Positions 49,102-51,603 of a stretch of DNA of 64,000 bases are shown here, in pieces. Below the pieces are notes generated by a model. That model did no database searches. It saw only the letters and a list, made by a program, of their open reading frames with translations, and was not told where the DNA came from. Position 1 is the stretch's first letter. Each line of letters begins with the position of its first letter. The stretch is from Escherichia coli. GTDB lineage: Bacteria; Pseudomonadota; Gammaproteobacteria; Enterobacterales; Enterobacteriaceae. A program made the position numbers and the translations under genes. The stretch lies in NCBI RefSeq assembly GCF_003334255.1, contig NZ_QOWU01000012.1; one strand, given 5' to 3'.

Positions 49102-49290
49102 CTATGTCATCGATCTTGTATCACTTTTTTTGCCGGAAGTTGTTTGCATTTTATTAGTTGGATAGGGTTTGTGGATTTTTGCTGGCTGACGGGCAAATAA
49201 AGTTTGTTTAATGGTTTGCTTATCTGCCAGTTGATTAATCACATGGCGGGCTATCTGACCGCCAGCACCAAGAATCAGTACCTTTTTCAT
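49102..49290 (-). pseudogene. ymjC: YmjC, truncated N-terminal fragment of an NAD(P)-binding Rossmann protein
   Basis: 62-aa ORF starting MKKVLILGAGGQIARHV (GxGxxG dinucleotide motif) but far too short for a full domain; frame ends inside a 36-bp repeat. Confidence 0.75.
49121..49156. repeat. Copy A of a ~36-bp direct repeat (tcactttttttgccggaagttgtttgcattttattag)
   Basis: About 88 percent identical to 51568-51603, including the identical 17-mer ggaagttgtttgcattt. Confidence 0.8.
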
Positions 49291-49295
49291 GAAAA

Positions 49296-49361
49296 TTATC
49301 CCAGATTATTGGCAGCAATATGCCAGGCCATATCACTATTGCGGATTTGAATATGTTTCAT
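49296..49361 (-). CDS. ymjD: Small protein YmjD (21 aa, MKHIQIRNSDMAWHIAANNLG)
   Basis: Short ORF filling the ycjY-ymjC gap; ATG overlaps the ycjY stop (TAATG); identification from memory. Confidence 0.45.
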   Translation of the reverse strand: MKHIQIRNSDMAWHIAANNLG

Positions 49362-50293
49362 TACAGAGTTTCCTCAAAGAACGGAGCTAATACTGAAATT
49401 GCTTCAGCCACATAGGCTTTGCCGTCATAAAGATCCATATGGTTTGCGCCTTCAACAATGTGATAGCGTTTATCCTGGCTTGATGCTCGATCGTACAGGT
49501 CGTCACTCATCCATTTGCTCCCTGCCTGGCTGCCCGCCACAATCTGCGTCGGCTGAGTCAGGTACACTTCCGCCATATGGTAAGCATCATAGGTAATAAT
49601 CTGGTTAAGGCTGCGCAAAGTAGCGTAACCCGGTGCTGTTGGATACTGCGCGCGAGGGGTGTGGTAATACTCCCAGGCCTGACGCAGTTCTTCGTTCGGC
49701 GCATCGGACTCCTTCATTGGTGCCAGTGGCATAATGGCGTATTCTCCGCTGCTAATATCGCTGGTTCTGGCGTTTGAACCCGCTTCAACGTATGGCAGGG
49801 CATCAATAGATTTCACATTGTTTTCCCAACCATTACGGAACATCGAACCAATATTGACTGCACTAACGGTACCGATGGCCTTGATGCGGCGATCCTGAAT
49901 TGCAGCATTGGCTGTATATCCTGCACCGGCACAAATTCCCATCGCACCAATTCGGGTATTGTCGACATAAGAAAGCGTTGTCAGGTAATCAATCACGGCA
50001 CTGACGTCTTCAGTACGAATGTATGGGTTTTCTAACTGACGCGGCTCGCCGCCACTTTCACCCTGATAAGATGCGTCATAAGCAATAGTGACAAATCCCT
50101 TTTCCGCCAGTTTTTCGGCATAGGTCCCGGCCGTTTGTTCTTTAACGCCCCCACCTGGGTGAGATACCACAATTGCCGGATATTGACGGGTTTCATCAAA
50201 TTTTGGAGGAAAATAGATCACTGCAGACAAAGAGATGGTTGGATTATTGCTGTTAGTGAAGCTGACTTTATTATTCATCATTCCGTTCCTCAT
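49361..50293 (-). CDS. ycjY: Alpha/beta-hydrolase family protein YcjY
   Basis: About 306-310 aa; several possible ATG starts (MRNGMMNN...). Confidence 0.88.
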   Translation of the reverse strand: MRNGMMNNKVSFTNSNNPTISLSAVIYFPPKFDETRQYPAIVVSHPGGGVKEQTAGTYAEKLAEKGFVTIAYDASYQGESGGEPRQLENPYIRTEDVSAVIDYLTTLSYVDNTRIGAMGICAGAGYTANAAIQDRRIKAIGTVSAVNIGSMFRNGWENNVKSIDALPYVEAGSNARTSDISSGEYAIMPLAPMKESDAPNEELRQAWEYYHTPRAQYPTAPGYATLRSLNQIITYDAYHMAEVYLTQPTQIVAGSQAGSKWMSDDLYDRASSQDKRYHIVEGANHMDLYDGKAYVAEAISVLAPFFEETL

Positions 50294-50380
50294 GGAGTTG
50301 TTGGTTCGTTTTAACGGTTGGTGATATCACTATAGATATTGATCATTAAGTTGATTAGACCCAAAATCATGATTAGACCT

Positions 50381-50394
50381 ATCATTTAAATGAT
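50381..50394. promoter_or_regulatory. Perfect palindrome ATCATTTAAATGAT (T-N11-A type) in the ycjY/pgrR divergent promoter region
   Basis: Self-complementary 14-mer 25 bp upstream of the pgrR ATG, with additional ATCAT/ATGAT and GATTAGACC direct repeats at 50341-50380. Confidence 0.45.
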
Positions 50395-50418
50395 TAATAG
50401 ATTGTATGGAGATACTGA

Positions 50419-51318
50419 ATGAAGCGTGAAGAGATCGCTGATCTGATGGCGTTTGTCGTCGTTGCAGAGGAGCGTAGCTTCACTCGAGCAGCAGCCCGCC
50501 TGAGCATGGCGCAGTCAGCTTTAAGCCAGATAGTGCGCCGTATAGAAGAACGATTGGGATTGCGGCTTCTGACCCGAACCACGCGCAGTGTTGTACCCAC
50601 TGAAGCGGGCGAGCATCTTTTGTCTGTTCTTGGCCCTATGTTGCATGACATAGATTCAGCCCTGGCATCCCTGAGCGATCTGCAGAACCGCCCATCCGGG
50701 ACAATACGTATTACTACTGTAGAACATGCAGCAAAAACGATATTGTTACCAGCAATGCGCACATTCCTGAAATCGCATCCTGAAATTGATATTCAGCTCA
50801 CCATTGATTATGGTTTGACCGATGTCGTTTCTGAACGTTTTGATGCAGGCGTCCGTCTGGGTGGGGAGATGGATAAAGATATGATCGCCATTCGAATCGG
50901 GCCAGATATACCAATGGCTATTGTTGGCTCACCGGATTATTTTTCTCGCCGAAGTGTTCCAACGTCAGTGTCACAATTAATAGATCATCAGGCAATTAAT
51001 TTGTATCTTCCCACATCGGGTACAGCAAATCGCTGGAGATTAATACGCGGTGGACGTGAAGTTCGTGTTCGCATGGAAGGTCAGCTTTTACTGAATACGA
51101 TAGACCTGATCATTGATGCTGCAATTGATGGGCATGGATTGGCGTATCTACCTTATGATCAGGTTGAGCGGGCTATTAAAGAAAAAAAACTGATACGTGT
51201 TTTGGATAAATTCACACCAGATTTACCCGGTTATCACCTGTACTATCCACACCGTCGACATGCTGGCTCGGCATTCTCATTATTTATAGATAGGCTGAAG
51301 TATAAAGGTGCTGTTTAG
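50419..51318 (+). CDS. pgrR: LysR-type regulator PgrR (YcjZ)
   Basis: 299 aa; LysR HTH (FTRAAARLSMAQSALSQ). Confidence 0.9.
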   Translation: MKREEIADLMAFVVVAEERSFTRAAARLSMAQSALSQIVRRIEERLGLRLLTRTTRSVVPTEAGEHLLSVLGPMLHDIDSALASLSDLQNRPSGTIRITTVEHAAKTILLPAMRTFLKSHPEIDIQLTIDYGLTDVVSERFDAGVRLGGEMDKDMIAIRIGPDIPMAIVGSPDYFSRRSVPTSVSQLIDHQAINLYLPTSGTANRWRLIRGGREVRVRMEGQLLLNTIDLIIDAAIDGHGLAYLPYDQVERAIKEKKLIRVLDKFTPDLPGYHLYYPHRRHAGSAFSLFIDRLKYKGAV

Positions 51319-51567
51319 CACTACTTGCTGATACATTAATTTAATTCTTCTCTTAACGTATTCTCAGTTCCTTTCAACGTTTTGGTCATTTTTTATTCTT
51401 CGTACAATGGCGACAGATGCTGATTATGATACCGAAAACGGGTTTGAACGTGCGAAGCCCGAACGTAGTGTTCGGAGTTCTATGTGCTTTACCGCATTTT
51501 GGAGACTATTATTTACACTAAATCTGATTTGATATATTGATACTTAAAACATTTGATGCTTCCTTTG

Positions 51568-51603
51568 TCACTTTTTTGATGGAAGTTGTTTGCATTTCTT
51601 TAA
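51568..51603. repeat. Copy B of the ~36-bp direct repeat; contains likely mppA -35 element
   Basis: TTGCAT-N17-AATAAT arrangement ending about 25 bp upstream of the mppA ATG. Confidence 0.75.

Follow-up and report, generated by a model that had tools for sequence, protein, structure and literature searches.

A duplicated segment of the mppA-mpaA spacer as a probable scar of cassette insertion in Escherichia coli

Here we describe a direct repeat in a 64,000-nucleotide stretch of the Escherichia coli genome (assembly GCF_003334255.1, contig NZ_QOWU01000012.1; hereafter the window), which carries the genes ycjG (+), mpaA (-), ymjC' (-), ycjY (-), pgrR (+), mppA (+) and ynaI (-) in this order. 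The two copies of the repeat are located on the same strand on either side of the ymjC'-ycjY-pgrR segment, copy A (49114-49151) on the mpaA side and copy B (51561-51597) on the mppA side. Very probably, both copies derive from one 37-bp piece of an old control region shared by two genes of cell-wall recycling, mppA and mpaA, which would have been duplicated when a gene cassette was inserted there. Insertion scars are an ordinary feature of a known kind, and no published description of this one was found in the searchable literature.

Repeat copies and the empty mppA-mpaA spacer

The repeat search of the window aligned positions 49126-49156 with 51572-51602 at 87% identity, and a second block (49114-49130 against 51561-51577) adjoins the main one with an offset of 1 nt, because the T-runs of the two copies differ in length. 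Copy A comprises 38 nt in the window, where its T-run (49126-49132) has seven T compared to six in the strains K-12 and S88, and copy B comprises 37 nt. The T-run of copy B is shortened and interrupted in O157-type strains. The 17-mer GGAAGTTGTTTGCATTT common to both copies has exactly two occurrences in the 64-kb window, at 49135 and 51581. In S88, a gap-free alignment of the two copies has 31 identical positions out of 37, and BLAST gave E = 3e-7 for the comparison of the two intergenic regions. In a Monte Carlo analysis, ungapped alignment of the two non-coding stretches gave a best score of 23, and none of 1000 shuffles reached this value (mean 10.4, maximum 16). The repeat search and the shuffles bear out an earlier reading of the window (the original prediction), which had described two copies in the same orientation with a common 17-mer. 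Copy A is located 89-126 nt upstream of the ATG of mpaA (49025, minus strand) and copy B 58-94 nt upstream of that of mppA (51655).

E. coli genomes carry matches to the 37-mer at a median of only two places (one place in genomes with an empty site, see below), so the 37-mer is not a dispersed repeat. Families of dispersed intergenic repeats, including repetitive extragenic palindromic and bacterial interspersed mosaic elements (REP/BIME), enterobacterial repetitive intergenic consensus (ERIC) sequences and miniature inverted-repeat transposable elements (MITE), were rejected as candidates, since many copies per genome would be expected for them. A few matches to the chromosomal locus (5-12 places) fell on E. 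coli records labelled plasmid.

One genome per bacterial species was scanned with MpaA, which returned 80 loci, and the neighbouring genes were mapped by tblastn; the states of the locus within E. coli were counted in 5,426 complete genomes. In 75 other species of Enterobacteriaceae from at least 15 genera, mppA and mpaA are direct divergent neighbours with a spacer of ~182-190 bp between them (empty sites). The genera include Citrobacter, Enterobacter, Klebsiella/Raoultella, Kluyvera, Kosakonia, Leclercia, Lelliottia, Pluralibacter and Trabulsiella. The empty arrangement was also found in Escherichia albertii, E. whittamii and three other Escherichia lineages, as well as in 173 of the complete E. 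coli genomes (3%).

The spacer of the Escherichia empty sites is 182 bp long and contains a single copy of the 37-mer, with the mpaA flank of the window on one side and the mppA flank on the other. The mpaA flank of the window through copy A (125 bp with six T counted) and the mppA flank past copy B (57 bp) together also make 182 bp. Since the empty-site spacer holds one 37-mer between the two flanks of the window, the repeat is a 37-bp target duplication flanking an insert at 49152-51560. The scar of a rearrangement that inserted ycjY-pgrR had been one of the explanations offered in the original prediction, and the single-copy sites of the 75 species and the 173 E. coli genomes are what it called for. 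The check proposed with it, a comparison of relatives for the presence of ycjY-pgrR between the copies, found this segment to be absent at these sites.

Apart from the extra T, copy A is identical to the single copy of the empty-site Escherichia genomes (loci L004 and L084-L087), and in the five occupied loci examined it is unchanged or altered only at one base or in the length of the T-run. Copy B is identical to copy A over its right 17 nt, whereas its left 20 nt have diverged by 4-5 changes. The left part of copy B also varies within E. coli (TCCTTTGTCACTTTTTTGAT in K-12 and S88 vs TCCTGTGTCACTTTCTGAT in O157-type strains).

The flanks of four empty-site E. coli genomes examined are 95.5-97% identical to the window, compared to 98-99.4% among occupied strains, which indicates that these sites represent an older haplotype and not a recent excision. 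In one empty-site allele (L086), a 37-mer of the copy A type is joined to the mppA flank of occupied strains, and the right 17 nt of copy B together with the next 57 nt match this allele exactly. However, L086 carries the empty-type T at a diagnostic single nucleotide polymorphism 22 bp to the left of the 37-mer (copy A) and is therefore not a simple excision product.

Table 1. Features of the mpaA-mppA locus (positions in the window)
Feature	Position	Strand	Remarks
mpaA	48297..49025	-	left-hand neighbour of the ancestral spacer
Conserved mpaA-proximal blocks	49055..49094	-	GCAGTGTTGTGCAAA (49055-49069) and TATCAAATCC (from 49080); outside the duplicated segment
Copy A of the duplicated 37-mer	49114..49151	+	contiguous with the mpaA-proximal 88 bp of the ancestral spacer
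Junction of the K-12-type 661-bp deletion	49151..49152	.	0-1 nt from the left cassette boundary
Inserted cassette, K-12-type reduced form	49152..51560	.	2,409 bp; absent from 75 species and 173 E. coli genomes
ymjC', N-terminal remnant of an SDR/NmrA-type oxidoreductase gene	49153..49290	-	pseudogene in K-12 according to the Prokaryotic Genome Annotation Pipeline (PGAP); aligns to the full-length S88 gene
ycjY, α/β-hydrolase, cassette member	49361..50281	-	homologs 82-85% identical
pgrR (ycjZ), LysR-type regulator of the cassette	50419..51318	+	transcribed divergently from the hydrolase genes
queH (epoxyqueuosine reductase) relic, right cassette end	51416..51490	+	PGAP call in the O157-type locus L002 (5462-5536), mapped to the window by sequence
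Copy B of the duplicated 37-mer	51561..51597	+	contiguous with the mppA-proximal 57 bp of the ancestral spacer
Likely mppA σ70 promoter	51589..51618	+	-35 (TTTGCA or TTGCAT) inside copy B; -10 AATAAT in block GAAACAAATAATTA
mppA	51655..53268	+	right-hand neighbour of the ancestral spacer

Origin, spread and trimming of the cassette

The window is 100% identical to strain 19SZHZ713Rt over 5 kb and 99.4% identical to K-12. The length of the cassette differs between strains, with 2,409 bp here, 3,074 bp in S88 and ~3.95 kb in O157-type strains. It contains a gene of the short-chain dehydrogenase/reductase (SDR) family, one or two α/β-hydrolase genes, the gene for the LysR regulator PgrR, and a queH relic. 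S88 has an intact gene for a 212-aa SDR family oxidoreductase between ycjY and mpaA, and O157-type strains have an additional second α/β-hydrolase gene, which is frameshifted there.

The GC content of the cassette is 0.44, compared to 0.54 for mpaA and ycjG and 0.48 for mppA. Homologs of YcjY with 82-85% amino-acid identity were named from Rhizobium, Agrobacterium, Sphingobium, Burkholderia, Reyranella and Pluralibacter, and this conservation across classes is unusually high for an uncharacterised α/β-hydrolase. Such identity suggests a wide and recent horizontal spread of the LysR-hydrolase module. A LysR gene divergent from two tandem α/β-hydrolase genes was found in Pluralibacter gergoviae and in two metagenomic genomes (L088, L089, L092), each time in an unrelated neighbourhood. 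At the DNA level, these modules are homologous to the E. coli insert (71-79%) over precisely three genes, those for hydrolase 2, hydrolase 1 and the LysR regulator, and the homology leaves out the SDR gene and the non-coding cassette ends. Based on the low GC content, the distant YcjY homologs and the occurrence of the LysR-hydrolase core in unrelated contexts, the cassette is evidently foreign and horizontally acquired.

As candidate donors, the closest YcjY contexts outside Escherichia were rejected, because they contain the hydrolase-hydrolase-LysR core only, without the SDR gene, the queH relic or the 37-mer, and two closer-looking matches turned out to be Escherichia loci. The queH relic between pgrR and copy B provides a clue to the donor, in which the LysR gene was presumably a neighbour of queH. 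To our knowledge, queH is not a resident gene of E. coli.

The annotations of the insert in its S88, O157-type and K-12 forms include neither an integrase nor a transposase, and no tRNA genes were found between positions 46000 and 55000 of the window. In the search against Rfam, the only hit was a RAGATH-10 match inside pgrR that stayed below the threshold (E = 0.52). The insert ends showed an inverted repeat score of 7 (shuffle mean 7.8) and no significant direct repeats. The sequence CATT(T)GATG present at both insert ends was considered as the ends of a mobile element and rejected, its occurrence being within chance.

Alignment of the window with S88 revealed a clean 661-bp deletion. The window tracks S88 up to …GTTTGCATTT(T) and picks up again at (T)ATTAGTTGG inside the SDR gene, so that the 3' part of this gene and 165 bp downstream of it are missing. 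The K-12-type junction is contiguous in 2,293 of the 5,426 E. coli genomes (~42%), and the deleted SDR segment is kept in 2,901 (~53%), of which 1,272 also keep the second hydrolase gene. Homology to the full-length SDR gene stops at 49152, next to copy A, which agrees with the earlier placement of copy A at the end of the ymjC reading frame. The accompanying proposal that the insertion itself truncated ymjC is refuted by the 2,901 genomes that keep the SDR segment, and the truncation is a separate, later event, namely the 661-bp deletion. Genomes with a full-length ymjC had also been predicted to lack copy A, but this is refuted by the three segment-keeping genomes inspected (S88, an O157-type strain and MS1657), in which copy A is found next to the SDR segment. 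As copy A is present in the strains with a full-length SDR gene, unchanged except for one C-to-T difference, it was not created by the truncation, and the link between the repeat and the truncation of ymjC is positional only.

The cassette has been trimmed repeatedly in E. coli, by the K-12-type deletion, by a 567-bp deletion in the SDR gene and by a deletion associated with the insertion sequence IS1. The 567-bp deletion, found in E. coli MS1657 and DETEC-P881, has end points other than those of the K-12 type, and a decay state of this kind with an additional 1.2-kb deletion fuses remnants of ycjY and pgrR. In E. coli O18ac:H14 873.10, both copy A and the SDR gene were lost through IS1, and an intact second hydrolase gene (310 aa) is present. 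Four states of the locus (empty, full cassette, without the second hydrolase, and without the SDR 3' part) provide easy markers of E. coli lineages.

The cassette of Escherichia sp. E1V33 (L006), which includes the K-12-type deletion junction, is ~97.5% identical to that of E. coli, compared to 83-90% identity of its flanks to the window. Copy B of this strain is a hybrid, whose first 11 nt resemble E. coli copy B; the rest and the mppA flank match the empty site of the E. whittamii type. Given the contrast between flank and cassette identity and the one crossover inside copy B, the cassette has moved between Escherichia lineages, across a species boundary, by homologous recombination through its flanks.

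Other insertions were found in the same spacer. Salmonella enterica subsp. diarizonae (L026, 7374-9602) and subsp. arizonae (L023) carry a three-gene island of ~3.1-3.4 kb, which separates mppA from what remains of its ancestral promoter. Judging from the translations only, its middle open reading frame resembles a CdtB of the DNase-I type and has a putative lipoprotein on each side, in a cdtABC-like arrangement. This island is evidently an independent insertion, at a different position, into the spacer that received the E. coli cassette. A protein search from the MpaA of S. diarizonae gave no cluster named Salmonella among those listed. In a locus labelled Citrobacter sp. 18056 (L057, 811-10000), a 9.2-kb insertion parts mpaA from mppA, with one breakpoint past the AATCAAATAGTTTCCC block and the other in the middle of the region equivalent to the 37-mer. 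It is a third independent case in which the centre of the spacer was used.

Promoters and the regulation of mpaA by PgrR

For the analysis of conservation, the 75 empty-site spacers were aligned. From the mpaA to the mppA side, the conserved blocks are GCAGTGTTGTGCAAA and AATCAAAT.GTTT, followed after a variable centre by parts of the 37-mer (ATCA..TTT, AAG and TTTGCA.TT), the block GAAACAAATAATTA and the Shine-Dalgarno sequence AGGGG. The most conserved columns on the mpaA side are the GCAGTGTTGTGCAAA and TATCAAATCC blocks, which likely represent the promoter or operator of mpaA.

A scan with the σ70 consensus identified TTTGCA-N18-AATAAT (equivalent to TTGCAT-N17-AATAAT) upstream of mppA, the arrangement already noted in the original prediction; with 8 such sites in the region compared to 6.1 expected, the mppA match alone carries little weight. 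TTTGCA and AAACAAATAATTA are at least 80-95% conserved across the 75 species. The pair of -35 and -10 elements together with this conservation lends support to the earlier assignment, and copy B, which directly adjoins the -10 block, very likely serves as the functional promoter of mppA. Copy A would be a leftover mppA -35 region, which is followed by cassette DNA and lacks a -10; its -35 box has a C-to-T change in S88 and in O157-type strains. In these small numbers, the pattern fits the idea that each copy keeps only what the neighbouring gene needs. The locus can be seen as a natural experiment, in which a divergent promoter region was split and its central part duplicated, with the copies decaying in an apparently complementary pattern. 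The deletion junction creates another promoter-like pair, TCCACA-N16-TAAAAT, directed towards mpaA (49148-49175, minus strand), with the -10 spanning the junction; it is a consensus match only, from the same scan with 8 sites against 6.1 expected.

A CRP operator was rejected as a candidate function of the repeat, no CRP-like site being present in either copy. Previously, a table of chromatin immunoprecipitation sequencing data from enterotoxigenic E. coli has listed a CRP site under ycjZ/mppA (PMC4287617). The near-consensus CRP-type sequence TGTGACCCGGTTCACG, an exact match to this entry, is located at 61820-61835 of the window, 10 kb from mppA, so either the table row or the genome arrangement differs from the window.

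PgrR has been named a regulator of peptidoglycan recycling with a stated regulon of ycjG, ycjXF-tyrR and ycjY-ymjDC-mpaA, and the target list from genomic systematic evolution of ligands by exponential enrichment (SELEX) contains only the ycjY/ycjZ spacer at this locus (PMC5934670). Autoregulation of PgrR has been confirmed (PMC10505187). Neither repeat copy corresponds to the reported PgrR site. The 37-mer is present in 75 species without pgrR at this locus, and the cassette homologs found elsewhere are not accompanied by it. Since PgrR came with the cassette and the 37-mer is older, the latter cannot have evolved as a PgrR operator.

Another explanation raised in the original prediction is that the 37-mer represents a shared cis-regulatory element, recognised by PgrR or another regulator of murein-peptide recycling and selected upstream of both mppA and mpaA. 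The conservation of its ATCA..TTT, AAG and TTTGCA parts in the 75 species and the nearly unchanged copy A of the five occupied loci would agree with this, and a single ancestral site in the divergent spacer could have served both genes. However, there was one ancestral copy, and the insertion alone explains two. The same genomic orientation of the copies means opposite orientations relative to mppA and mpaA, and the decaying left 20 nt of copy B vary even within E. coli. Together with the late arrival of PgrR, the SELEX list restricted to the ycjY/ycjZ spacer (PMC5934670) and the lack of CRP-like sites, these observations leave a shared element unsupported, and we consider it improbable.

The link between PgrR and mpaA can be viewed differently in the light of the deletion. 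In full-length strains, a perfect 12-bp hairpin followed by the U-rich tract UUAUUAAACUUAUU is located just downstream of the stop codon of the SDR gene (~1764-1796 of the S88 locus L001, minus strand; the same sequence is present in the O157-type locus L002). The hairpin has a folding energy of -18.2 kcal/mol (z = -2.7) and was not called by a simple terminator scan. It is terminator-like and could decide whether transcription from ycjY reaches mpaA. The K-12-type 661-bp deletion removes this hairpin, and we infer that read-through from ycjY via ymjC' into mpaA, and hence the reported control of mpaA by PgrR, would be a consequence of the deletion. The ycjY-ymjDC-mpaA operon of K-12 probably depends on it, and the control of mpaA by PgrR may be strain-specific, possibly being absent from the ~53% of E. 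coli genomes that keep the hairpin segment and from the 3% without a cassette. PgrR is a late arrival here and appears as the LysR regulator belonging to a foreign hydrolase cassette, which came to lie between mppA and mpaA. The insertion explains an odd gene order in the E. coli reference genome and alters the reading of the PgrR-mpaA link.

Joining mechanism and comparison with known systems

The history starts from an ancestor in which mppA and mpaA, as divergent neighbours, had a control region of 182 bp in common. A cassette acquired by horizontal transfer, with the SDR gene, two α/β-hydrolase genes, the LysR gene pgrR and a queH fragment, was inserted in the middle of this region. Its two junctions were staggered by 37 bp, and the spacer segment of this length is now present to the left and to the right of the insert. 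Copy B, still joined to the mppA side, would supply the -35 box and upstream DNA, and its left half, parted from mpaA, would decay, whereas copy A, still joined to the mpaA side, would be a leftover. Later trimming in E. coli includes the 661-bp deletion, which made ymjC a pseudogene and removed the hairpin. Comparison with the empty sites shows that the two joins are staggered by 37 bp. As the features of mobile elements are not present, the duplication most probably arose by illegitimate recombination with staggered joins, without a transposase.

Several points weigh against this history. The donor search revealed no genome with the full SDR-hydrolase-LysR-queH arrangement, and the promoter roles are deduced from conservation, our literature search having found no transcription start sites for mppA or mpaA. 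A duplication of 37 bp is far longer than those made by transposases, and the sequence does not reveal how the ends were joined. The left 20 nt of copy B differ at 4-5 positions, which calls for fast neutral decay or a separate origin; the spacer with the queH relic shows ~6.5% divergence between K-12-type and O157-type strains (counted from the sequences), and the excess divergence of copy B is compatible with neutral decay. Finally, the left end of the 661-bp deletion falls within 0-1 nt of the left cassette boundary, a coincidence which is not predicted by a simple two-step history and has a rough chance of ~1-2% if deletion ends are uniform over 165-290 bp.

Integration of the Campbell type or of a site-specific kind is about as improbable as a shared element. 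Here, a circular cassette with its own 37-mer-like sequence would have recombined with the chromosomal 37-mer inside the 17-mer, making the left half of copy B donor-derived. This would explain why the differences between the copies all cluster in the left 20 nt of copy B and why only the right 17 nt are exactly identical; a two-lineage origin, in which a donor allele supplied the left half, would explain the clustering as well. Homologous recombination within copy B is seen in Escherichia sp. E1V33, and the K-12 deletion reuses the same boundary. Nevertheless, all forms of the insert are free of an integrase or transposase, there is no nearby tRNA gene, and the insert ends have no terminal inverted or direct repeats above chance. 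The best matches to the 37-mer around the cassette homologs of other genera (L088-L093) reach 19-23 of 37 positions, which is background, and E. coli genomes contain no third copy. The neutral decay seen in the adjacent relic would also account for the excess divergence that this model attributes to the donor.

The cassette left junction and the later 661-bp deletion end on the same bond (within 1 nt), and for this reason the right edge of the 37-mer (…TTGCATTT|) might be a preferred break-and-join point and not a passive scar, although we regard this as quite unlikely. If true, the -35 region of mppA could contain a recombinase site or a site that is cleaved because of its sequence or structure. 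The cdtABC-like island of S. diarizonae was examined as a further insertion starting right after TTGCATTT and rejected, because the alignment shows homology through the diverged -10 block, with the island located further downstream. A general hot spot for junctions was also rejected, since the 567-bp deletion of the MS1657 type and the IS1-associated deletion of 873.10 end elsewhere.

A reversed polarity, with the occupied state as the ancestral one and empty sites produced by recombination between the copies, is very unlikely. Such recombination would leave exactly one 37-mer, and L086 does join a copy-A-type 37-mer to the mppA flank of occupied strains. However, empty sites are found in 75 species of many genera, whereas the cassette is limited to E. 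coli and one recombinant lineage; the flanks of empty-site E. coli genomes are more distant from the window (95.5-97%) than those of occupied strains are from one another (98-99.4%), and L086 has the empty-type T 22 bp to the left of copy A. Chance resemblance of two AT-rich intergenic regions has next to no probability, for although the sequence is T-rich and a 31/37 match is not extraordinary genome-wide, no shuffle reached the observed score (BLAST E 3e-7) and, as the stronger argument, the two copies correspond in register to one and the same stretch of the empty-site spacer, which refutes this explanation.

The duplication of a 37-bp spacer piece at cassette insertion can be compared with several known systems. 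Like the target-site duplications of insertion sequences and transposons, the repeats are host DNA, flank an insert directly and are represented by one copy at empty sites. Transposase duplications are typically 2-14 bp long, whereas 37 bp are duplicated here, without terminal inverted repeats or a transposase, and the inserted DNA is an ordinary cassette of metabolic and regulatory genes. The attL and attR sites of genomic islands and prophages are also direct repeats flanking acquired DNA, which can recombine and are single-copy where the island is absent. In contrast, an annotated integrase and a tRNA target are both missing from the present locus, no sign of a circular form with attP was seen, and the repeated DNA is promoter sequence, with half of one copy decaying. 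Nothing resembling the 37-mer was found in the loci of the cassette homologs (L088-L093), and the different positions of the other insertions in this spacer (the Salmonella cdt island and the Citrobacter-labelled locus) argue against a recurrent att site.

Micro-duplications are known from junctions at which foreign DNA was inserted into bacterial genomes by illegitimate or homology-facilitated recombination. The present case resembles them in the lack of a dedicated recombinase, in the staggered or imprecise joins and in the later spread by recombination through the flanks, as in Escherichia sp. E1V33. In its gene content, the cassette resembles mobile modules of a LysR gene and a divergent operon, since pgrR and ycjY with the second hydrolase gene keep their arrangement in Pluralibacter and in metagenomic contigs. 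Unlike these modules, the operon in K-12-type E. coli runs on into the resident gene mpaA.

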